In this document: positions 1 through 64,000 of the stretch, piece by piece
How positions within the stretch are numbered: the first letter of the stretch is position 1
Layout of the letters: every line of letters begins with the position of its first letter
Assembly: GCA_012813795.1 (NCBI GenBank)
Contig: GCA_012813795.1_4087.1
Origin: a phage
DNA: 64,000 bases
Direction: 5' to 3' (one strand)
The notes under the pieces: model-generated
Databases searched by the model: none
Told to the model about the DNA's origin: nothing
Seen by the model: only the letters and a program-made list of their open reading frames with translations
Translations under genes and position numbers: made by a program

Positions 1-1220
1 CAAGAATAATTGATGATGTTATCGATGCATGTACCGTTCGTGAAGGTGACAGTACTAGCGTTCGTCAATTTGTTAATATAATCCCACTTAAACAATATGT
101 TGGTTTTGATAATTTACGTAACACATCAGTATATAAAGTTATTTTTAATATTGTTCGTTTTCGTATTGGTGATGTTGTCCATGAATCCGATTTACAGCCA
201 GAAAACTTTAACTTCGAGACATTCCTAGAAAACTCTGAACGTTATCTTGACCCTAGAGATAATGAAGAAAAGTTAAGAATGAAAATATACAATTATCAAT
301 TCAGTGGATTGAATAATGAAATATTAGATTTGGATATGAATTTCGACCAACAATTTTATGTAGCTACTACACGTAACCCAGGCCCAATACAAGACCAAGG
401 TAACAGAAGTGGTACACATGCATCACAAGAATTGACCATACAAGGGGTTCAATATAGTAACCCGTTGGATGCTTGGAATAAAACTAGTGATATAAGAAAA
501 GCACGAAGTAAAGGTGAAATTATAACACAAGCCCAAACAGCTTTACTTAATGAAATAGATGAGCAATTAAAAAATGCAATGGGTGTGGGTAATCAAGCAG
601 AACAAGATGCTTATATGAATTATAAAGTTCATGTCCTTCCTGAATACATTGAAGATTATCGTAGTGTATATGAAGAAAATGATATGGGTGCTGATGGTAT
701 TGGCGACCGTAGAGGTGAAATATTCACTATACCAACTGAAGCAACAAATAACCATACAACCTTATCAGCATCTGATAACGATAATAGCAGTACATATGAA
801 ATGGACAGACGTAAAATACGCGACAACTATTATAACCGTCCATTTATGTGTAAGTTGGATATGCGTGTTATTGGTGACCCATATTGGTTGGGATGGGGTG
901 ATCATGCATATCTTCAATATTTGGATATGTTGGTGAATGGTGAAGCATTATATATAAATCCAGAGGATTTCAAATATGCAAATTATATTTCAACCGAAGC
1001 ATATTTGTTATTGAAATTGCAACCTGTAGTTTCAATTAATGATAATACTGGTATTTTGGATATAACCACACCAACTACATTCAACGAAACAATCTATCGC
1101 GTAAACAAAATAATTCATGATTTTGGTACAAACGGCACTTTCACACAACAAATTCAAGGTGCTATTGTCGCTCGTGCACTTAAACGTAAAGATAGTATAA
1201 TAAACCCAGGTGGTGAGTAA
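1..1220 (+). CDS. virion structural protein of the baseplate module, 5-prime truncated at window edge (function unassigned)
   Basis: Reading frame is open from the window start (frame 3) through 1220; ORF track shows only the first internal Met at 279. Stop TAA 1218-1220 overlaps ATG of the spike gene (TAATG). Confidence 0.5.
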   Translation, partial: RIIDDVIDACTVREGDSTSVRQFVNIIPLKQYVGFDNLRNTSVYKVIFNIVRFRIGDVVHESDLQPENFNFETFLENSERYLDPRDNEEKLRMKIYNYQFSGLNNEILDLDMNFDQQFYVATTRNPGPIQDQGNRSGTHASQELTIQGVQYSNPLDAWNKTSDIRKARSKGEIITQAQTALLNEIDEQLKNAMGVGNQAEQDAYMNYKVHVLPEYIEDYRSVYEENDMGADGIGDRRGEIFTIPTEATNNHTTLSASDNDNSSTYEMDRRKIRDNYYNRPFMCKLDMRVIGDPYWLGWGDHAYLQYLDMLVNGEALYINPEDFKYANYISTEAYLLLKLQPVVSINDNTGILDITTPTTFNETIYRVNKIIHDFGTNGTFTQQIQGAIVARALKRKDSIINPGGE

Positions 1221-3883
1221 TGGCAGATACAAGTAAAAAGTTTGCAAAGGAACAGTTGGGTCGTTTTGACCCATCTTATCCACAATTAGCAACCGTTATG
1301 GATAACCGAGATCCTACGAAATCTGGTAAGCTAAAAGTATGGATACAAGGTTCACAAAGTGATAAAAACTCTAAAGATTCATGGATTGAAGCTTCATATA
1401 TGGCCCCGTTTGCTGGTAAAACCCCAGGAATACCAAGTGCAGATAGTTATGGACAGTATCCAAAAGGTTATGGTTTTTGGGCCGTACCACCAGATGTGGG
1501 ATGTACAGTTGTTGTTATTTTTGCACAAGCACGTACATTCCAAGCTTACTGGATTGGGTGTGTTTATGACCAGCGTATGAATACGATGGTTCCTGGTATG
1601 GCAACTGCTGATACAAATTACAATGGCACAGATATGCCATTACCAGTAACTGACTATGATCGTAACACAATCACAACTGACATGCAAGACAAATATATTA
1701 ACGTTCCTGCTGTTGAAGGATTGAAAAAACAAAACTTATTATACGATGATGAAGCAGGTGTTGCAAACCGCAGCAGTACTCGTCAAACAACCAGTACTGT
1801 ATATGGTATGAGTACACCTCGTGGTAATAGTTTTATTCTTGATGATGGATATACAGAAGAAGAATTGACCAAGCCAACATGGGATCAAGACCCTGATGGA
1901 TACCAAGACACACAATTTAACAACCCAGTTAATGACACTCGTGTTGGTTCCCGAAAGAATGAAGGTATTGTTATTAAAACACGTAGTGGTGCACAACTTC
2001 TTATTTCTGAAACCACTGGTAATGTTTTATTAATTAACCGTGATGGTACGGCTCGTATTAAATTCACTGGCGATGGTGATATTGAAATGCACTGTGATAA
2101 AAACATAAACATTCGTGCAGGTCAAGATATTAACATGGTTGCAGGTCGTTCTTATAATATTGAAAGTGGGCAAGACTTCAATACTCGTGTTGGTGGAAAT
2201 ACCAAACTGGAATTGGTCGGTAATTTGGATGCTAAGGTCAATGGTCAGGTTGTAATTAATTCTGGTGCTGATCTTCGTTTGGTTACTGGTGCTTCATTAC
2301 GTCTTCAAAGTGGTAGCAGTACTGATATTACGGCTGGCTCAACAGCATCTGTTAAAGGTTCATCCTCTGCAAACGTTATTGGTGGCTCATCCGTTAACAT
2401 TAGTGGTGGTGGTCAAAACCTAACAGTTGATAGTGCTGGTAACAGTGGTAGTGCTGCATTCATGGCTCCTGATTTTAAAACACCATCAGTGGGTCTTAAT
2501 GATCACATTCATATGATTGCTAACTGGAAAGATGCAGAAAACCACGGTGATAGAGTTGATCCTGGTATAAGTGGTGGTGGTCAAGGTAGTACAACATCTC
2601 CAGTTGAGCCACAACCAGCAAATGATGTTCAACCTACACTTGCAGAGCAACAAGAAACAGACGCAATTCAATTTGTAAATTATGCCCCAGAGACAAGTGA
2701 AGTTCAAACACAAGATTTAATGGCGGCTGAACCAGGAATGACTGGTTATTCGCAGACATTTGAAGGTTTGCATATGCTTATGCCATGTAGCGGTACTATT
2801 CGCCAGAATGGTTATTGGGGTAAGGGTGTAACGACCGAGAATGGAACCAAGCGTGATAGTAGTGGATGGGAAATTCAAGCCCGTGGAAGTGTGGTTGCAC
2901 CAGATGGTGGGATTGTTGGTATCAGTGGTGATGCTCTTATTATTGAACATAAATCTGGTTATAAATCTGTTTTCTATGGTTTAACTTCTGACCTATTCAA
3001 TAAAGATGTTGTTGAAAAAGGACAAGTAATAGGAACTGCTAATGGTATATTACGATTTGAAATAAGAGTTCGCTCATCTAATATCTATGGTTTTAGTGGT
3101 TCAGTTGATCCTGGATTATTCTACACAACTGTAACTGGTCAGGGTTCTGCTGCGGCGAACAAAACATTAATTGGTGGTCAACCATCAACACAAAATAACC
3201 CTAAAGATGTGGTAAGACCATCTGCTGATAGTGATGAATTAGTAATATCAACTCGAATCCGAACAATTGGAACTGGATATTCACAACGTGGTTCACGACA
3301 TGTTCCGCGTCGTAGGGAACGTAAACCTCGAAATGCAGGAACTGCACCAAAAGCAGAACAAAATTATAACGTAGGTAATGTTGATAAAACAGCAGTTGGG
3401 TGGAAAGTTGCCCCAGGTGATTCACAGTTTGTATCTGAACTTAAAGAACATGAAGGTACGATCCAATATCAAACTGCACTTGGATATTTCAGAAATGGAA
3501 AATTCTGGCGTTATATTGATAGTCGTGGTTTTCCTACAATTGGATATGGACATCTTATTGATGGTGGTGAAGATTTCTCTGGTGGTATAACTGAAGCAGA
3601 AGCTGATGCAATGCTAGTACGAGACAGTACTCAAGCAATCAATGATGCAAAATCAATATATGCTGCATGGGATTTAAAAACACCAGTTATTGCTCAACAA
3701 GTACTATGTCAAATGGTATTCCAAATGGGCAAATACAAAGTACAAAAATTCAAGGGTATGCTTGGGTGTTTAGCTAAAGGTGATTATCGTGGTGCTGCTG
3801 CTCATATTCGAAGTTCCGCTTGGTATCGTCAAACAACTCGTCGTGCTGAGTTAATGGCACGTAGAATTGAGGCATGTCAATAA
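1220..3883 (+). CDS. baseplate central spike/hub protein (gp5/VgrG-like) with beta-helical repeats, degenerate M23-like domain and C-terminal T4-type (GH24) lysozyme domain
   Basis: 887 aa. N-terminal OB-like segment; G/S/N/V-rich beta-helix-like repeats (NINIRAGQDINMVAG...); M23-like pattern (APDGGIVG...LIIEHKSGYKSVFYGL...KGQVIGTANGILRFEI) lacking the HxH histidines; C-terminus from about 3390 matches T4 lysozyme motifs (EG...IDSRG...PTIGYGHL...MVFQMG...SAWYRQTTRRA). Confidence 0.75.
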   Translation: MADTSKKFAKEQLGRFDPSYPQLATVMDNRDPTKSGKLKVWIQGSQSDKNSKDSWIEASYMAPFAGKTPGIPSADSYGQYPKGYGFWAVPPDVGCTVVVIFAQARTFQAYWIGCVYDQRMNTMVPGMATADTNYNGTDMPLPVTDYDRNTITTDMQDKYINVPAVEGLKKQNLLYDDEAGVANRSSTRQTTSTVYGMSTPRGNSFILDDGYTEEELTKPTWDQDPDGYQDTQFNNPVNDTRVGSRKNEGIVIKTRSGAQLLISETTGNVLLINRDGTARIKFTGDGDIEMHCDKNINIRAGQDINMVAGRSYNIESGQDFNTRVGGNTKLELVGNLDAKVNGQVVINSGADLRLVTGASLRLQSGSSTDITAGSTASVKGSSSANVIGGSSVNISGGGQNLTVDSAGNSGSAAFMAPDFKTPSVGLNDHIHMIANWKDAENHGDRVDPGISGGGQGSTTSPVEPQPANDVQPTLAEQQETDAIQFVNYAPETSEVQTQDLMAAEPGMTGYSQTFEGLHMLMPCSGTIRQNGYWGKGVTTENGTKRDSSGWEIQARGSVVAPDGGIVGISGDALIIEHKSGYKSVFYGLTSDLFNKDVVEKGQVIGTANGILRFEIRVRSSNIYGFSGSVDPGLFYTTVTGQGSAAANKTLIGGQPSTQNNPKDVVRPSADSDELVISTRIRTIGTGYSQRGSRHVPRRRERKPRNAGTAPKAEQNYNVGNVDKTAVGWKVAPGDSQFVSELKEHEGTIQYQTALGYFRNGKFWRYIDSRGFPTIGYGHLIDGGEDFSGGITEAEADAMLVRDSTQAINDAKSIYAAWDLKTPVIAQQVLCQMVFQMGKYKVQKFKGMLGCLAKGDYRGAAAHIRSSAWYRQTTRRAELMARRIEACQ

Positions 3884-3917: not shown

Positions 3918-4406
3918 ATGAGTAAATGGGAAATTAAACCTGATGATGCACAGTATTTGAAAGAAATTAAAGAGTTTGAAGGTACTATTGCTTTCCAAAC
4001 TAAATTAGGTTATTTCAAGAATGGTAAATTCAGAGTTTATAAAGATAGCCTAGGACTAGATACCATTGGTTACGGTCACTTAGTACTAAAAGGTGAAAAT
4101 TTCAGTGCAGGGCTAACTGAAGCAGAAGCAGAAGCACTACTTCAAAAAGATTCCCTAAATGCATACAGAGAAGCTAACGAGATTTATGATCAATTCGGTA
4201 TGTCTGCACCAATTCAGGTACAACGTGTACTTTGGATGATGATATTCCAAATGGGTAAATCTCGTGTATTGAACTTTAAGAAAGCGATGGCAGCATTGGG
4301 TTGTGGTGATTATAAAACCGCTGGCAAAGAAATGCGTGATTCCGCTTGGTATCGTCAAACAACTTCTCGTGCTGAAAAAATGGCAAGGATTGTTGAATCC
4401 GTATAA
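3918..4406 (+). CDS. T4-type lysozyme (glycoside hydrolase family 24), free paralog of the spike C-terminal domain
   Basis: 162 aa; EFEG...YKDSLG...DTIGYGHL catalytic Glu/Asp/Thr pattern, MIFQMG and SAWYRQTTSRA motifs; RBS AGGAGA 5-10 nt upstream; clearly alignable to residues about 725-887 of the spike protein. Confidence 0.85.
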   Translation: MSKWEIKPDDAQYLKEIKEFEGTIAFQTKLGYFKNGKFRVYKDSLGLDTIGYGHLVLKGENFSAGLTEAEAEALLQKDSLNAYREANEIYDQFGMSAPIQVQRVLWMMIFQMGKSRVLNFKKAMAALGCGDYKTAGKEMRDSAWYRQTTSRAEKMARIVESV

Positions 4407-4419
4407 ATGAGGAAAGTCT

Positions 4420-4815
4420 ATGGCAATAGTTTTTAAAGGTTTCTCTACTCCTGTTGTGGGTAAAACACAAACTCTGTATGATGCTGAGTTGGTGAGACAG
4501 GATTTGATGAACCACTTCAATACAAAGAAAGGTGAAAGAGCATTTGATGCTGATTATGGTTTCATTGCTTGGGATTTGATTTTTGAACTTGATGGTTATA
4601 ATACAAAAAATCTTTTAGAAGCTGACGCTCGTAGAATTATTTCATTAGACCCACGTTTGAATTTAAAAAATCTAACAGTTAGTAATGTTGAATATGGTTA
4701 TCGTTTGGACATAATTTTAGAGTATGTAATGCTTGATAAATTAGAACAACTTACTATAGTATTCGATGCCAGAAGTAATAATAGGATGGCAACGTTTACA
4801 ACATCTAAATTATAA
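4420..4815 (+). CDS. baseplate wedge protein, gp25/GPW-like
   Basis: 131 aa; size and pattern (KGERAFDADYGF...DLIFE) resemble T4 gp25 / P2 W family as recalled; sits between spike-lysozyme and gp6-like genes as in other contractile tails. Confidence 0.65.
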   Translation: MAIVFKGFSTPVVGKTQTLYDAELVRQDLMNHFNTKKGERAFDADYGFIAWDLIFELDGYNTKNLLEADARRIISLDPRLNLKNLTVSNVEYGYRLDIILEYVMLDKLEQLTIVFDARSNNRMATFTTSKL

Positions 4816-8460: not shown

Positions 8461-11400
8461 ATGACTAATAATTTTAAGTTTCTACCAACTAAAACGGCAG
8501 AAGCAGTACAACAGAAGCTTTTCATTAAAAGATTACCTGAATGGATGCAAGGCTTAGAAGACATTCAAAAGGTTAGTGATGATGTAATTCAACAATGGTT
8601 CAATCCAGCGGATAATGAAATCGTTGATGGATATATTGGTGATATGGGTTCTCCTGCTGCATCTGCTAAGATTTTCCTTGACGAATCAACCGTTGAACGT
8701 CAGCTATATCAATTATCAACAGCATATGTGTCTCGTAATGATGACACAAGCATTCGTTCGCTTCAATTTTATGATGATTTGGTTGGCTACATGGAACACT
8801 ATGGCACGTTAACTTCAAACGAGAGCCGTCTATTTTCTGGTAAGTTCTATTCTTGGACACCACCAATTAACCCAAACAAAATGACCAACTATAGTTCTTA
8901 TTTGTGGGATAGTAAAAATAGTTTTGGTATCACATCACCTGACTTTATTGTTATGGAACGTGGTGCTGATAACGGTAACACTTGGTCACTACAGAACTTT
9001 TGGTATACTATTGGACAAACCCTAGAAGATGGTACAGTACTAACTGCTGACATGACGCAGGATACTCGTTTTATTCGTGCACAAGCACCAATCATCGAAT
9101 ATAATAAAAACATCGAATTAATCAACTACGGAACAAATTTCCGTGGTATTGTTGACCTATTCTCTGATACAGTTAAACCAGAAGATATCGTTCAAAAGGA
9201 CGTTAACGATGGTATTCGTATCGATGGTATCATTCCACAAGATGGTATGCGTATTCTATTCACCAGTATCGGTAACGTTGGTGAAAACAACCGCATTTAT
9301 AAAGTTTTTATAAAGAAAATGCAAGATGGTTCTCGTACCTATGGTTTGGCACTAGATCCTGACGAGGAATCAGAAGAACGCCCAAGTGGTGAACCCCATA
9401 ACGGTGATGTAATTTTGGTGCGTGATGGTAATGTATATAAAAATACATCCATGTACTGGAATGGTGTTGATTGGGTTAGAGCACAAACCAAATCTGGTAT
9501 CAACGTGTTCCCACAATTCCAATTGTATGACCGTGATGGTTTCAAATTAAACGACACTACTATGTATCCATCAAGTAATTTCGTTGGATCATCACTATTT
9601 GGTTTCAAAATTAACTATAATTATGGCACTGATAAAGTATACGGTTATAATATTGAATTAGGTAATTATAATTACTACATGTACGAAAACTTTCTTCAAA
9701 GTGTTCGTTATACATATGATCATTTGGGTGTTGAAACAGAAATTTCTGGATTATATTACTATAATGTAGTTGGTAAAGATAATGAACTTCACCTTAAGAC
9801 CGATTGGGTTCGCTCAAAGGAAGATTCAAAACAATTTGTTAAACAAACACCACAAATCGAACATACTGATATGTATCGTGTATTCAATACTGTATTTGAA
9901 ATGGAAAACTTCAAAACTCCATTAGAAGGTATGTATGCATATGTCATTGAAGTTGATCGTACCTATCAATATTACAAAGAAGAACGTCAAACCTATATGG
10001 ATTGGCATGTAATTAGTGGTGAAGGTATTCAAAGTGAACGTTTCAATCGCACATTTGAATTAGCCCAGAAAATTATTGATGGTAAGAGTACTGAAATCAT
10101 TGAAATTCAAGTTGATGGTGTGGATGTAACCGATTATACACGTCATGTATATAATAACAAGGTTCAAAGCATCACTTTAGGGGAAGACGTTACTCTTAAA
10201 GATGAATCAGTAATTCAAATTAGAACATATAGCAGTACGGAAGTACCAAATAAAGAGTTGGGTGCATATGAAATCCCAATTAACTTACAAAATAACCCAT
10301 ACAACGATAATATTCTTTATATCAACCAAAGTAATTTTACATTACATTTTAAAGATATCATTCAAAAGAATATTACCAGTGGTTCAGTTGATGATTTCAA
10401 TGACTACGAAGAGCGTTTGTCTAAAGGTTTAGTAGATAACTCTGTAGGTACTAAGATTATCCAAAACGAAGCATCTATGCTACCGTTAATGGCACATTCT
10501 GCAAATGAAGACATTGACCTATTTGAATCTGTATTGTTTATGCAATCAGAGTACTTTCGTTTTGTAAACAAGTTCAATACACAAATGATTCGTTTGTATA
10601 ATGAGAACCCAGCAAACTTCTTAGCTAATAATGCTTCTAATATTGTTGATGAAATTCTAACAATTATTAATATGGGTCATGATAATACATTCCCATTCTA
10701 TTATGACAACGTGGCAAGTACTTCTGGTTTCATTCGTGCTTTTGTACCACCAACTCCACAGTTCTTAGGTATTTTAAAAGCTCACGTTCCAGAAAAAGCA
10801 ACATTTTTGAATGCTGGTAGTAAGCAAAGCTGCTATAACATCAGCCATACTGGTGCAATCACCAAAGCATACCGTGTAATTAACGGTGTTGATAAAATGG
10901 ATGACGTTATATATGAATTAGAAAATCGAATCTTCAATAGTATTGATGTTATTTTCAAAGATGAAGATTACCAACCTAAGCTAGATGCTTCTGACCTTTT
11001 CCCTACTCCGTATTTTAGAGATACAGAGTATAATGATGAAGAGAAGAAGAACTTACTACTACGTGGTTACATTAACTTCATCGCAACCAATGGTATCAGT
11101 AACAGTTCGCATGATTATGATCCAAATAACTGGATGACTTGGAATTATACTGGAACTTATTACATTGTTAATGGTCAACAAACACAAATACCAGCACGTG
11201 GTTCATGGCGAGCAATCTACACTGACCAATTTGGTACATATCGCCCAGCAACCCATCCGTGGGAAATGTTTGGATTCTCCCAACGTCCGGTTTGGTGGAA
11301 CCAAGAGTACGAACCAACAGCAGTTCAAGTTGGTGAACGCGACAGTGATGTTGTTTATGTATATGAGGCATTGGTTCTCAACGAACAAGGTAACATGGTC

Positions 11401-61497: not shown

Positions 61498-61900
61498 TTA
61501 CGTAATCCTCATACTGTTCGTATACACGCATTATACTCTGATATGTCACAAAGTCAATACCAAAGGTATCATCAATGAACTGATATTGCATAAACTCTTC
61601 CTCGGTAGCACCAATAGGAAGTGTGCCGTTTCGTTGATCGTTTGATTGAACATCTTCAATGTACATCAAACCTATACTTTCATCTAAAGTGATATCTATC
61701 ATAAAAACATCTTCACTATAAAACATGTTATATGAACGGATGAAAAGATTACCAGTTCTATCAAAACTTGATACATGTGTTTCAACGTAGGTTCTATCTA
61801 AACTAAAGAATAAACCAGTACCATCGGGTTTTCGTTGGTCTTTCAATTTAATTTCGATAGCATCAAATATCGGTTTAATATTAAACTTTTTCATAAGCAA
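61484..61900 (-). CDS. hypothetical protein, tandem paralog B
   Basis: 138 aa; C-terminal half (QYQFIDDTFGIDFVTYQSIMRVYEQYE) parallels paralog A. Confidence 0.45.
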   Translation of the reverse strand: MLMKKFNIKPIFDAIEIKLKDQRKPDGTGLFFSLDRTYVETHVSSFDRTGNLFIRSYNMFYSEDVFMIDITLDESIGLMYIEDVQSNDQRNGTLPIGATEEEFMQYQFIDDTFGIDFVTYQSIMRVYEQYEDYVIGRY

Positions 61901-62076
61901 ATCACATACTTATTACTATGTGGATCGTAACAGTAAGAGTCGTTCACCTTAATGCCAGGTTTGAGTTCCAGGGTTGTACCCATTTCAGTACTGGGTTCTG
62001 CATCACAATAAATCATCACACCAATGCCACCGAGTAAGGCTATGATACATATAACTGCACCTATTGTATATTCCAT
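61891..62076 (-). CDS. small predicted membrane protein
   Basis: ORF track start 62079 is GTG; ATG at 62076 has an AGAGGT RBS. One hydrophobic segment (AVICIIALLGGIGVMIY). Confidence 0.4.
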   Translation of the reverse strand: MEYTIGAVICIIALLGGIGVMIYCDAEPSTEMGTTLELKPGIKVNDSYCYDPHSNKYVICL

Positions 62077-62093
62077 CACTATACCTCTGTTAT

Positions 62094-62540: not shown

Positions 62541-62567
62541 AGAAAAGGGACAGAAATAATCTGTCCC
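62541..62567 (-). terminator. hairpin terminator after hpf
   Basis: GGGACAG-AAATAAT-CTGTCCC followed by TTTTCT on the minus strand. Confidence 0.55.
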
Positions 62568-62576
62568 TTTGTTATA

Positions 62577-62909
62577 TTACTCTTCTTCGTCAGTTACATC
62601 AACTACAACTGGACGGTCTGGATGGTTTCGGTGGTGCAATTTAATGCTTTTGTCTTTACTGAATACAGTTTCCATTTTTTCGAATGAATCGACAATCGCC
62701 TTGTATAAATCTGCATCATCGGCAGTAACAGACTTACCACCTGATGTTAAAGTTACTGCGTACTGTGTCTTATGCTCTTTTTTCACATGAACACCAATAT
62801 TCAGTACTGAAGAATCACTAAATTTATTTAGAGTGTTTGCTTCTTGATGAATTGCGTCATGGATTGCTGGAGTAATATCAACATTACCTTGAATAACTAG
62901 ATTTAGCAT
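62577..62909 (-). CDS. hpf: ribosome hibernation promoting factor / RaiA-family homolog
   Basis: 110 aa; LNLVIQGNVDITPAI...VHVKKE...VTLTSGGKSVTADDADLYKAIDSF...KLHH follows the HPF/YfiA pattern as recalled from E. coli HPF; followed by a hairpin terminator. Confidence 0.75.
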   Translation of the reverse strand: MLNLVIQGNVDITPAIHDAIHQEANTLNKFSDSSVLNIGVHVKKEHKTQYAVTLTSGGKSVTADDADLYKAIVDSFEKMETVFSKDKSIKLHHRNHPDRPVVVDVTDEEE

Positions 62910-62923
62910 ACTTCACCTTCCTT

Positions 62924-63853
62924 TTATATTGAGCTTAACAAAGTATCCGCTCTGTTTGTTACTTGCCTATACCATAAGGAATTTTTGATTTCTCTTTTAA
63001 ACTTCTTATGATTTTCAGCTTCAGCACTTCTCCATAGTTTATTAAATGAGGCCAACTTATCAACACCCATCGTGTAAGCCATGTCAAAGAGAATACGTTG
63101 TTGGTCTTTTGTAAGATTTACTGCATTTTTTTTCTTCATTAGAGTTGTAAAGTCATTATATGTCCTTTTCAAATCTTGAAGTAATAGTTTATGTGCTTGT
63201 GCTTTGGTAATACCGTTTCTGTACTTAATTGCATCAGATTCACGTGGACCGAGGTAGTGACCATATGCGATTGTGTAGTTACCTTTCATATCCTTATAAG
63301 GATGAAATTTTGAATTGTAGAAAGGAACTCCAACTTTTCCCCCAAGTAAACGTCTTTTGTTCTTGGACTGAAATTCAATTGAACCTTCAGCTTCTTTGAT
63401 GTGTGCTACTATTTCAGGATCATTATAATCGAAAAGTACTACCACATCAGGTAACAGTACGTCTTTCAAATCCTCTTTTGTTGGGATAAAGATACCCTGC
63501 GATGTATGAAGTTTAGCATTAAGATTGATATTCTTCAATACTGTAACGTAATCATCTAACAACACATTATGCGGTTTAAACTTCTTAGCTATCGAATGAT
63601 AACTATCACCGTATTCAACAGTATAATGTTTCTCGCTGCCCGGAACTACTTTAGGTGTATACCCTTTGGGTAATTCCTGCTTTTGAATTTGTGTAACTTG
63701 CGGTTTTAAATTGTGCACCTGACTTTCGCCCGATGATGATGCACGACCATGATGAGAAAAACCATAAAAAAATCCAAACGCAGCGATGATAACAAGTGAA
63801 ACTAATAAGCCTATGGCTGTCTTAGTTTTAGGTGTTTGTATCGCTATTGTCAA
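62924..63853 (-). CDS. membrane-anchored LysM + T4-type (GH24) lysozyme (candidate signal-anchor endolysin)
   Basis: 309 aa; N-terminal hydrophobic segment (AIGLLVSLVIIAAFGFFYGF), LysM-like YTVEYGDSYHSIAKKF, C-terminal lysozyme motifs (EAEGS...YKDMKG...YTIAYGH...LWYRQVTNRA). Start is TTG with a GGAGG RBS 5 nt upstream. Confidence 0.7.
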   Translation of the reverse strand: MTIAIQTPKTKTAIGLLVSLVIIAAFGFFYGFSHHGRASSSGESQVHNLKPQVTQIQKQELPKGYTPKVVPGSEKHYTVEYGDSYHSIAKKFKPHNVLLDDYVTVLKNINLNAKLHTSQGIFIPTKEDLKDVLLPDVVVLFDYNDPEIVAHIKEAEGSIEFQSKNKRRLLGGKVGVPFYNSKFHPYKDMKGNYTIAYGHYLGPRESDAIKYRNGITKAQAHKLLLQDLKRTYNDFTTLMKKKNAVNLTKDQQRILFDMAYTMGVDKLASFNKLWRSAEAENHKKFKREIKNSLWYRQVTNRADTLLSSI

Positions 63854-63972
63854 AAACGCCTCCTTTGTTTGCGTGTTATGATGAGCAATTACAAAGAGGG
63901 CTTATGAGGCCATTTGCAAAAGCCTCATCGGACTTTCTACAATACTGAACTGTTCTTACTGAACATTTAAGT

Positions 63973-64000
63973 AGTATAGCATACTTTTTTGTTATATCAA
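63973..64000 (-). promoter_or_regulatory. sigma70-like promoter (TTGATA-N16-TGCTATACT) at window edge
   Basis: Minus strand reads TTGATA, 16-nt spacer, TGCTATACT; upstream of the LysM-lysozyme gene. Confidence 0.45.

Follow-up and report, generated by a model that had tools for sequence, protein, structure and literature searches.

This locus raises the question of how RaK2-like jumbo phages bring about host lysis, given that the group has no validated holin and that three lysozyme paralogs compete for the role of endolysin. The question also has a practical side, as several RaK2-like members are under therapy development against E. coli, Klebsiella and Salmonella. The stretch of DNA analysed here (64,000 nucleotides, hereafter the window) belongs to an Asteriusvirus and is 97.8% identical to phage A4 across this stretch. 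Our preferred explanation, held with moderate confidence, is that the lysozyme encoded at the far end of the window is a membrane-targeted enzyme of a RaK2-like Asteriusvirus, restrained by its leader RNA, that would degrade the cell wall without a large-hole holin.

The gene (positions 62924-63853, minus strand) encodes a protein of 309 aa. As a first-pass annotation of the same DNA had proposed, it starts at a TTG codon (63853-63851) preceded by a strong ribosome binding site, GGAGG at 63863-63859 (AAGGAGG), with a spacer of 5 nt. The protein matched phrog_15410 across its full length (E = 9e-150) and was 97% identical to A4_528; its orthologs include 121Q gp532, CBB_187, GAP32 gp180, RaK2 gp506 and phAPEC6 gp293, and roughly 70 phage records carry an ortholog in all. 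The analysis confirmed that the gene is real and codes for a predicted membrane-anchored, cell-wall-binding phage lysozyme. As a membrane-anchored LysM-GH24 protein has been a published endolysin candidate since 2017, this confirmation adds little by itself.

The catalytic part was assigned to residues 146-309 (62927-63418, minus strand). Pfam Phage_lysozyme (PF00959) scored 44.8 bits (cut-off 22.3; E = 1.9e-11) over residues 184-289 and was matched in 37/37 family members. In the AF2 model the pLDDT was above 90 for residues 73-309, and the best Foldseek matches of the model were T4 lysozyme (probability 1.00, TM about 0.65), so that the T4-type domain expected from the letters was recovered both as profile and as fold. 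D188 (63292-63290) and T194 (63274-63272) aligned with D20 and T26 of T4 lysozyme, and E156 (63388-63386, motif KEAEG) with E11; all three residues were invariant in 37 sequences and are retained even in the remotest members of the family. The spacing of the triad is E-X31-D-X5-T, as compared to E-X8-D-X5-T in T4 lysozyme, and a shorter insertion between E and D is common to both GH24 paralogs in the window. Profile, fold and catalytic residues place the protein in GH24, and muramidase activity is predicted from them.

Between the N-terminus and the catalytic domain lies a LysM-like domain (residues 76-124; 63482-63628, minus strand), which had been suspected from the translation and was upheld mainly by structure and by the relatives. 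Pfam LysM (PF01476) gave a partial match of 15.5 bits in the window protein, under the cut-off of 20.9, and was matched in 31 of the 37 family members (E ≤ 0.1; best E 1e-4). The AF2 model has a beta-alpha-alpha-beta unit at residues 76-122 (strand 76-78, helices 85-92 and 99-109, strand 120-122; pLDDT 90 or more), and the pattern YxVxxGDS..IA...P.NV..Y..VL..N is conserved in this region of the family alignment. The domain is a predicted peptidoglycan binder.

The N-terminal hydrophobic segment that had also been pointed out was recovered as a candidate transmembrane or signal-anchor segment at residues 13-32 (AIGLLVSLVIIAAFGFFYGF; 63758-63817, minus strand). It forms the single Kyte-Doolittle peak of the protein (2.36, residues 14-32), with a dGapp of -1.39 kcal/mol on the Hessa scale, and a hydrophobic N-terminal segment was present in 37/37 aligned members and persists even in the most divergent representatives of the family. 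In the window protein K9 and K11 flank the segment N-terminally, and across the family this flank carries 2-7 K/R versus 0-2 D/E. From the positive-inside rule we infer an N-in/C-out topology. For residues 1-72 the AF2 model contained no helix and was of low confidence, so it is uninformative on the anchor.

Could the segment instead be a cleavable Sec signal peptide, the mature protein being a soluble periplasmic LysM-lysozyme? Small residues past the core (G31-F-S33 and G36-R-A38, then SSS) offer possible -3/-1 sites, and a short signal peptide of typical form is present in the distant member P0076. However, no -3/-1 site is shared across the family alignment, the hydrophobic core of 19-22 residues has the length of a transmembrane segment, and in three distant members about 90 residues precede the segment, which points to an internal anchor. 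We therefore regard cleavage as improbable and retain the membrane-targeted form.

The protein had further been likened to signal-anchor-release (SAR) endolysins. In a SAR transmembrane segment hydrophobicity is weak, and Gly, Ala, Ser and Thr make up roughly half of the residues or more (Chamblee et al. 2022). Kyte-Doolittle values were dropped as a discriminator between SAR and ordinary transmembrane segments, R21 having 2.11 and the lysozyme family a mean of 2.14, and the comparison was therefore based on G/A/S/T content and on the insertion free-energy scale. The G/A/S/T content of the window segment was 35-41%, below the SAR range, versus 65% in R21 (verified against PDB 3hde), and its dGapp contrasts with +0.78 for R21 on the same scale. 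Values across the lysozyme family ranged from -2.5 to +3.5, so that the SAR range is reached by some orthologs. The window segment is thus too hydrophobic for a typical SAR domain, and a release mechanism is not evident. The protein has no cysteines and hence no disulfide switch of the P1 type. [quoted passage not shown] 2022).

The earlier count of three GH24 copies in different contexts was reproduced by tblastn and Pfam, the contexts being virion spike, free and membrane-targeted. The first paralog is a baseplate hub/spike protein of 887 aa (1220-3883, plus strand) with Pfam Phage_base_V, an M23-like region and a C-terminal GH24 domain (Phage_lysozyme, 765-882). The second is a free GH24 protein of 162 aa, identified by Pfam (3918-4406, plus strand), encoded between the spike and gp25 genes and sharing 53% identity with the GH24 domain of the spike. 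Mass spectrometry has placed orthologs of the spike protein, CBB_240 and phAPEC6 gp241, in virions (CBB: PMC5259590).

These proteomes also bear on the idea that the 309-aa protein is itself carried in the virion, or ejected, and, like the spike lysozyme, breaks down the wall during infection. Its ortholog is annotated as 'tail lysozyme' in the Salmonella phages Munch and SE_PL, and the PHROG matches over the GH24 domain include tail-lysozyme families, but these annotations rest on domain similarity only. The phAPEC6 ortholog gp293 was undetected by mass spectrometry in virions in which the spike lysozyme was detected, and CBB_187 is absent from the list of CBB structural proteins (PMC5259590). 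In addition, the structural modules do not include the gene, and a Sec-type anchor at the N-terminus is ill-suited to packaging, which makes a virion role very improbable.

The free copy is a more serious competitor. LysUE1, an ortholog of the 162-aa protein, has muralytic activity in vitro in the presence of EDTA (PMC12805682), and the soluble protein could be the real endolysin. A search for a neighbouring holin had been recommended. Among the genes up to 20 kb on either side of the lysozyme gene, none is annotated as holin, pinholin or releasin, and a holin that the fEgEco12 paper mentions is not encoded within that distance either. Two small membrane proteins, both unannotated, are the only candidates for such a partner: one of 62 aa at 61891-62079, and A4_522/g268, which has two transmembrane segments and lies about 2.2 kb upstream.

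The promoter previously placed at 63973-64000 (minus strand) was supported. It is of the sigma70 type, with a -35 hexamer TTGATA (64000-63995), a 16-nt spacer, a TG extended -10 and a -10 hexamer TATACT (63978-63973), which gives 10/12 consensus matches in addition to the extended -10; the edge of the window coincides with the -35 hexamer. Consensus matches in the upstream region were no more frequent than in shuffled sequence (10 found versus 10.8 expected), and the support for the promoter therefore rests on its conservation in relatives. A4, 121Q and fEgEco12 share this promoter at the corresponding position, and the CBB/GAP32 clade has a near-consensus TTGACA-17-TAAAAT (11/12) at about -195.

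Downstream, only 14 nt past the lysozyme stop, starts a gene for the ribosome hibernation factor HPF/RaiA (62577-62909, minus strand; 110 aa; Pfam Ribosomal_S30AE, E = 3.8e-10; TIGR00741), which directly follows the lysozyme gene in three clades. A palindrome scan found a terminator-like hairpin with an 11-bp stem at 62544-62570 (reported on the plus strand), followed by UUUUCUUAU on the minus strand, and this would be the terminator of the two genes. Judged from the sequence, lysozyme and HPF form a conserved, probably co-transcribed unit between the sigma70-type promoter and this predicted terminator.

The late motif ATAAATA(A), found ahead of at least 9 of the structural genes in the window, is absent before the lysozyme gene. 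The T4-type TATAAATA was rejected as a late motif (1 found versus 13 expected in the window), leaving ATAAATA(A) as the relevant one. A sigma70-type promoter without a late motif counts against a role in terminal lysis, as genes with that role are more usually late. A literature search found no Asteriusvirus transcriptomics, and the PA5oct transcriptome was discarded as a proxy for timing since the predicted peptidoglycan-degrading proteins of that phage include no TM-LysM-GH24 protein.

The promoter type and the link to HPF, a host-physiology gene, are what would be expected if the anchored protein were an accessory periplasmic enzyme that remodels the wall in early or mid infection, the soluble 162-aa lysozyme carrying out lysis, probably with a holin encoded elsewhere. 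Peptidoglycan would then be cut locally, for example to allow enlargement or filamentation of the cell, and a stable anchor with a tether of about 40 residues would limit the reach of the enzyme accordingly. Cells infected with phage Sharanji do filament before lysis (PMC11895373), LysUE1 can lyse cells in vitro when EDTA is present (PMC12805682), and the free copy is unconfirmed in RaK2-like virions (PMC5259590). On the other hand, an early periplasmic muramidase should be lethal unless tightly limited, as indicated by the toxicity of CBB_187 (PMC5259590), and the location of the free copy inside the baseplate module, together with its similarity to the spike domain, suggests a tail-associated origin. 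Nor does promoter type fix the time of translation. T4 gene e, too, has early transcripts. An accessory function is in our view possible but rather unlikely, and a leader-restrained lytic enzyme remains the preferred explanation.

Restraint is suggested by the leader, which comprises about 113 nt ahead of the lysozyme and is gene-specific and structured (all elements on the minus strand). Hairpin P0 (UGUUC-AGUAA-GAACA, 63951-63965) occupies a position at which a hairpin was found in all lineages despite unrelated stem sequences, and as helix 1 of the leader alignment it showed compensatory changes in 5/7 pairs. It is followed by an invariant block, UUGUAGAAAGUCC (63930-63942; the UGUAGAAAGUCC block), which was unchanged among about 20 unique leaders whose encoded proteins are only about 50% identical and which occurs once in the 64-kb window. 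The block is the 5' strand of an alternative helix A, formed with 63924-63916, whose pairing was kept at 100% in 19 sequences with no covariation. GTAGAAAGTCC was ruled out as a recurring promoter or operator, there being one exact copy in the 64-kb window. Short leader uORFs in the window and A4, ending at a TAG in the invariant block, were considered a coincidence, since neither 121Q nor the other clades have them.

Hairpin B (GAUGAGGC ... GCCUCAU, 63904-63929) has a conserved apex U-GCAA-A, that is, a GNRA cap, on a stem that covaries (GAGGC/GCCUC, GCGAC/GUCGC, GUGGC/GCCAC). In the alignment this helix 2 had 93.7% of cells paired and compensatory changes in 2 pairs, and the leader covariance model matched the window at 63903-63970 (26.2 bits, E = 2e-4). 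The 5' strand of hairpin B overlaps the 3' strand of helix A, so the two helices are mutually exclusive.

Closer to the gene, both the MFE and centroid structures contain a predicted helix that would sequester the Shine-Dalgarno (SD) sequence (63859-63900), in which the anti-SD CCCUCUUUGU (63900-63891) pairs with ACAAAGGAGG (63868-63859), with 10/11 pairs by inspection. In the window's own clade this pairing was not significantly above that of shuffled upstream sequence; in the CBB clade an analogous SD helix of 12-13 bp covaries and is significant against shuffles in a few members only. In the Munch-like clade the 3' strand of hairpin B pairs with the start-codon region instead, and a simple switch formulated for the CBB clade (1:2 + 3:4 on, 2:3 + 4:5 off) fails there.

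Rfam 15, searched with permissive thresholds, gave no family at gathering score for the leader and no minus-strand match up to E = 10; the sole match overlapping it was snoZ118 on the plus strand (63870-63969; 22.4 bits, cut-off 48). When viral and metagenome contigs were scanned with the leader motif, 68 matches were returned, 26 of them upstream of the lysozyme. The others were generic GC-clamped hairpins or unrelated high-GC sequence with marginal covariance scores, and the scan gave no evidence for the element in another gene context.

Given the non-ATG start, the covarying leader and an SD that is mostly paired in predictions, the structured leader probably restrains translation of the lysozyme. 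Together with the HPF co-transcription, the leader and the weak start codon suggest that production of the enzyme is under tight post-transcriptional restraint. A more speculative proposal, and one that we consider unlikely as it stands, is that the leader is an undescribed cis-regulatory RNA switch in which P0, UGUAGAAAGUCC and the exclusive helices A and GNRA-capped B are coupled to SD or start-codon pairing and thereby gate both the tethered muramidase and HPF. If true, RaK2-like jumbo phages would time wall degradation and translational shut-off by RNA and not by a classical holin clock.

In the preferred explanation, host sigma70 RNA polymerase would produce a two-gene mRNA for lysozyme and HPF from the extended -10 promoter, and the leader with its paired SD would keep synthesis low or conditional, the non-ATG start adding to the effect. 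Sec would insert the protein into the membrane in the type II (N-in/C-out) orientation, and a linker of about 40 residues would tether the LysM domain and the GH24 muramidase in the periplasm. At the end of infection the wall would be degraded without a large-hole holin, by enzyme still tethered or released from the membrane, and it is in this step that the protein would act as the true endolysin. Sharanji-infected cells filament, bulge and burst at the bulges (PMC11895373), which fits gradual degradation of the wall from the periplasmic side.

Several known systems share parts of this arrangement. The endolysins KZ144 and EL188 likewise carry a peptidoglycan-binding module N-terminal to the catalytic domain, and an N-terminal wall-binding module is unusual among phages of Gram-negative hosts (PMC5259590). 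They combine a PG_binding_1-type module with a transglycosylase and have no anchor, whereas the window protein combines LysM, GH24 and a predicted anchor.

T4 lysozyme (gp e) and gp5 have the same fold and the same catalytic Glu, Asp and Thr as the window lysozyme, and T4, like the window phage, has both virion-borne and free lysozyme paralogs. Unlike the window protein, with its predicted transmembrane segment and LysM domain, gp e is soluble, cytoplasmic and holin-dependent and has neither. The early mRNA of T4 e is reportedly untranslatable, a hairpin hiding its ribosome binding site (McPheeters et al. 1986), and this hairpin is a possible analogy for the window leader; in T4 the switch depends on a late promoter within the hairpin, whereas the window lysozyme has no late motif.

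The SAR endolysins (P1 Lyz, phage 21 R21, Mu gp22 and phiKMV gp45) also have an N-terminal segment with a basic cytoplasmic side and export a GH24-type muramidase by Sec (here predicted), and they are toxic alone, as is the ortholog CBB_187. The SAR resemblance first proposed is a reasonable one and had been drawn before for the orthologs (PMC5259590). The N-terminal anchor and its basic flank agree with it; the hydrophobicity, the separation of anchor and enzyme and the triad spacing do not. The SAR domain abuts or forms part of the catalytic domain, whereas in the window protein a linker of about 40 residues and the LysM domain lie between them (about 110 residues in all), and the triad has E-X31-D in place of E-X8-D. 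Nor does the gene belong to a late lysis cassette that includes a pinholin. Given the hydrophobicity of the segment and the separation of about 110 residues, the relation to SAR endolysins is one of resemblance and not of membership.

The closest system is the CBB_187 family, and the TM-LysM-lysozyme family is in this sense already known from RaK2-like phages (Buttimer et al. 2017). CBB_187 was described in 2017 as a predicted endolysin with a transmembrane segment, a weak LysM and a lysozyme domain, SAR-like and toxic on cloning, and its induction inhibited growth of E. coli (data not shown in that paper; PMC5259590). CBB_187, 121Q gp532, GAP32 gp180 and RaK2 gp506 are 52-80% identical to the window lysozyme over the full length and share its three-part architecture and genomic neighbourhood, and a TTG start is annotated for CBB_187. 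There is no essential difference, the window gene being the ortholog in an A4-like Asteriusvirus. What appears to be new here, beyond the description by Buttimer et al. 2017, is the conserved leader RNA and the conservation of the non-ATG start, found with a strong SD in 18/19 loci; the promoter at about -195 and the link to HPF were likewise unreported there. The leader, the weak start codon and the HPF link together provide concrete handles, such as leader mutants and reporter fusions, on the timing of lysis in the RaK2-like phage group.

By megablast the window belongs to Asteriusvirus, the 121Q/PBECO4 group of RaK2-like jumbo myophages, with 97.8% identity to Escherichia phage A4 over the 64-kb stretch and 81-83% identity to about 30 further E. 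coli and Salmonella jumbo phages. The anchored lysozyme is encoded on the minus strand at 62924-63853 (309 codons) and corresponds to A4_528 ('lysozyme') and to 121Q gp532, which RefSeq names 'LysM peptidoglycan-binding domain-containing protein'. The first-pass annotation had it initiated at TTG behind a strong ribosome-binding site and this held: the TTG lies at 63853-63851, with AAAGGAGG 5 nt 5' of it, and a TTG or GTG start with a strong Shine-Dalgarno (SD) sequence was kept in 18 of the 19 orthologous loci (L001-L019), the RaK2-type locus alone having ATG. Given that the first internal Met is residue 189 at the earliest, no downstream ATG start retains the catalytic Glu. The proteins behind these conserved non-ATG starts are only about 50% identical, and the conservation suggests that low initiation of a toxic product may be under selection.

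A T4-type lysozyme domain, an N-terminal hydrophobic segment and a LysM-like motif had been proposed for this protein and all three were recovered. The catalytic domain scored 44.8 bits against Pfam PF00959, T4 lysozyme (T4L) structures were matched by phmmer, and the predicted structure aligned with T4L in Foldseek with probability 1.00 and a TM score of about 0.65. E156, D188 and T194, the equivalents of T4L E11, D20 and T26, were invariant in 37 sequences. The spacing of the first two is E-X31-D because of an insertion C-terminal to the catalytic Glu, compared with E-X8-D in T4L and R21; both paralogs in the window have E-X21-D. The LysM domain scored 15.5 bits in Pfam, below the threshold of 20.9, but was matched in 31 of the 37 family members, and AF2 placed a beta-alpha-alpha-beta unit at residues 76-122 with pLDDT of at least 90. 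A single, strongly hydrophobic membrane segment was found at residues 13-32 (Kyte-Doolittle peak 2.36), preceded by K9 and K11, and the protein has no cysteines. The intervening linker (residues 33-72) is of low complexity and low AF2 confidence. Within this otherwise variable stretch the motif PQVTQIQKQ (residues 51-59; 63677-63703, minus strand) was conserved in the family alignment, with I56 invariant, and may mark a site of processing or interaction.

A cleavable signal peptide in place of an anchor is argued against by the length of the hydrophobic core (19-22 residues), by a -3/-1 cleavage site that is not conserved in the family alignment and by three distant members in which about 90 residues precede the segment. 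The proposed comparison of the anchored protein with signal-anchor-release (SAR) endolysins is reasonable as a resemblance. It shares with them a predicted Sec-type N-terminal targeting segment and a membrane tether, but the segment is more hydrophobic than that of R21 and lies about 110 residues from the catalytic domain. Its G/A/S/T content is 35-41%, compared with 65% in the R21 SAR domain (R21 sequence checked against PDB 3hde). The summed insertion free energy, calculated with scale values that are reportedly those of Hessa et al. 2005, was -1.39 kcal/mol as against +0.78 kcal/mol for R21. Within the anchored-lysozyme family the values lay between -2.5 and +3.5 (mean 0.13), and those of some orthologs therefore fall in the range of SAR domains. 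SAR domains are weakly hydrophobic, with Gly, Ala or Thr making up about half of the residues, are often missed by hydropathy programs and usually belong to a muramidase with E-X8-D-X5-T; release triggered by a pinholin is the definitive test (Chamblee et al. 2022, PMC9239132). Based on hydrophobicity, G/A/S/T content and the separation of about 110 residues, we did not class the anchored lysozyme as a SAR endolysin.

When 1.84 billion representative proteins were searched with a profile of the whole TM-LysM-GH24 architecture (E <= 1e-30), only 12 clusters at 50% identity were obtained; below them the scores dropped sharply and matches covered GH24 or LysM alone. Distant members retained the catalytic residues as well as the LysM domain and the hydrophobic segment. 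Many of the closer homologs were found on contigs of about 350 kb, and the family looks restricted to RaK2-like jumbo phages. In three distant members (P0075, P0078 and P0080) the membrane segment is preceded by about 90 extra N-terminal residues, perhaps a cytoplasmic domain with a potential regulatory effect on the anchor. On an unrelated viral contig (L021, 2877-3539) a 220-aa GH24 protein with a Gly/Ala-rich, SAR-like N-terminal signal and without LysM has the same post-Glu insertion, and is a putative exported relative of this insertion-bearing GH24 subfamily outside the RaK2-like phages.

Three GH24 copies in different contexts had been described in the window, and tblastn and Pfam found all of them. 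Besides the anchored copy, these are the C-terminus of an 887-aa baseplate hub/spike protein (1220-3883, plus strand) and a free 162-aa lysozyme directly 5' of a gp25 homolog (3918-4406, plus strand). The latter two are 53% identical in the GH24 domain, whereas the anchored copy shares only 30-32% identity with each of them. The spike protein also contains Phage_base_V, a gp5-like OB domain, and an M23 peptidase-like region (below threshold); its GH24 domain is C-terminal and not central as in T4 gp5.

In phage CBB, CBB_187 was predicted as the endolysin, with GAP32 gp180, 121Q gp532 and RaK2 gp506 named as homologs, and its N-terminal domain was likened to the signal-arrest system of P1 Lyz and phiKMV gp45; the same study lists three baseplate-region proteins, orthologs of window 4420-4815, 3918-4406 and 1220-3883, and in its supplement CBB_187 is given a TTG start (Buttimer et al. 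2017, PMC5259590). The first-pass finding is thus correct and matches a description already made in silico: the observation is confirmed, its interpretation is supported, and the anchored lysozyme had been predicted in the literature before. The start-codon, promoter, HPF-link and leader anatomy is new in this analysis. In virions of phAPEC6 the spike lysozyme gp241 was detected and gp293 was not (Wagemans et al. 2020, PMC7247149); gp293c is the anchored-lysozyme ortholog. No functional study of the anchored lysozyme was found in a literature search.

The promoter claimed for the gene, TTGATA-16-(TG)TATACT at 64000-63973 (minus strand), was found at the same position in A4, 121Q and fEgEco12. 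In the CBB/GAP32 clade the sequence is TTGACA-17-TAAAAT (at about -195, with 11/12 matches), and in phages of the Munch-like clade it is TTGCAC-18-TATAAT. A late-type motif, ATAAATA(A), also reported for CBB and GAP32, is located upstream of at least nine structural genes in the window (e.g. upstream of 8431, 25940 (-), 29091, 35561, 50840 (-) and 51911 (-)) and was absent upstream of the anchored lysozyme in the window and ten relatives. The sequence TATAAATA occurs once in the whole window, compared with about 13 occurrences expected from composition. An HPF/RaiA ribosome hibernation factor gene (62577-62909, minus strand) starts 14 nt past the lysozyme stop and is followed by a terminator-like hairpin (62544-62570, minus strand). 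HPF directly 3' of the lysozyme was also found in the CBB/Yersinia-phage and Munch-like clades, three clades in total, and the two genes are apparently on one transcript.

Between promoter and start codon lies a structured 5' leader of about 113 nt (63854-63972, minus strand) consisting of a 5' hairpin (P0), an invariant block, hairpin B or the alternative helix A, and a predicted SD-pairing helix. The block, UGUAGAAAGUCC ... CUUUGUGCAAA, is near-invariant in all clades and unique in the 64-kb window. The P0 stems directly 5' of it are unrelated between lineages (GUAGUA/UACUAU, UUAACUC/GAGUUAA, GGAGCG/CGCUCC, CAGUAUU/AAUACUG and, in the window, UGUUC/GAACA), and hairpin B, 3' of it, is capped by a GCAA tetraloop and covaries at its base. 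The leader matched no family in Rfam. Among about 20 unique leader sequences, 12 were used to train a covariance model, which recovered every lysozyme-linked leader (E 1e-20 to 2e-4; in the window 63903-63970, 26.2 bits), unrelated motif matches giving only marginal scores. In a structure-fitted alignment of 19 sequences, which favours pairing, 92.4% of cells were paired as against 82.8% after shuffling (0/500 shuffles reached the observed value) and 35-56% with slid partners; compensatory changes in 7 pairs were equalled by 1/500 shuffles. Helix A, in which GUAGAAAGUC pairs with GRCUUU(G)UGC, was paired in 100% of cells with no two-sided variation, and this invariance neither proves nor refutes it; A and B share a strand and are therefore mutually exclusive.

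Predicted structures pair the SD in the window (CCCUCUUUGU with ACAAAGGAGG) and in the CBB clade (12-13 bp, CCUUAUUACGCA with UGUGUAAUAAGG, some compensatory changes); for the Munch-like clade they pair the start codon and not the SD. Against shuffled upstream sequence, SD sequestration was significant in a few CBB-clade members only and not significant in the window's clade, so we claim a structured leader and commit to no particular switch logic. The leader, which probably limits translation, looks on sequence comparison to be specific to the anchored-lysozyme gene in RaK2-like phages. It is probably a new, if modest, side result, and it renders the question of lysis timing testable.

On balance we lean towards an endolysin of LysM-GH24 type: the protein would be exported via Sec and stay tethered to the membrane, and the weak start codon together with the structured leader would keep its synthesis down. 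In the main rival reading, rather unlikely in our judgement, the protein remodels the wall as an accessory enzyme, is made at an earlier stage of infection, and leaves the role of true endolysin to the soluble paralog of 162 aa; an ortholog of that paralog, LysUE1, has been purified and lyses cells with EDTA (Niaz et al. 2025, PMC12805682).

In the search for a holin or spanin beyond the window edge, the annotation of fEgEco12 showed no holin within +-20 kb of the ortholog; three sets of unannotated candidates were found. About 2.2 kb upstream of the lysozyme, past the window edge, A4_522 (L001, the A4 locus, 9399-9632) and fEgEco12 g268 (L056, 23644-23868) encode a holin-like protein of 74-77 aa, which has two TM segments and is charged at its C-terminus. 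About 9.4 kb upstream, the overlapping genes g251 and g252 of fEgEco12 (L056, 30555-31240) look like an i-spanin/o-spanin pair from their sequences, g251 (annotated 'FtsB') having an N-terminal TM segment and a coiled coil and g252 the lipobox LISGC. The third candidate (phrog_4189; 61891-62079, minus strand), a protein of 62 aa encoded three genes downstream of the lysozyme, has its TM segment at the N-terminus and is a possible small membrane protein accessory to lysis. The lysis genes thus appear dispersed, as they are in T4. Further along the same strand are overlapping tandem paralogs, both phrog_20693 (61075-61497 and 61484-61900), and a 208-aa HNH endonuclease fragment (60313-60939; phrog_953, profile positions 198-402 of 420), likely a mobile homing-endonuclease remnant. 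Its site is variable, with a different 355-aa ORF in A4 and none in 121Q, and in GAP32 (L005) a similar ORF immediately follows the lysozyme.
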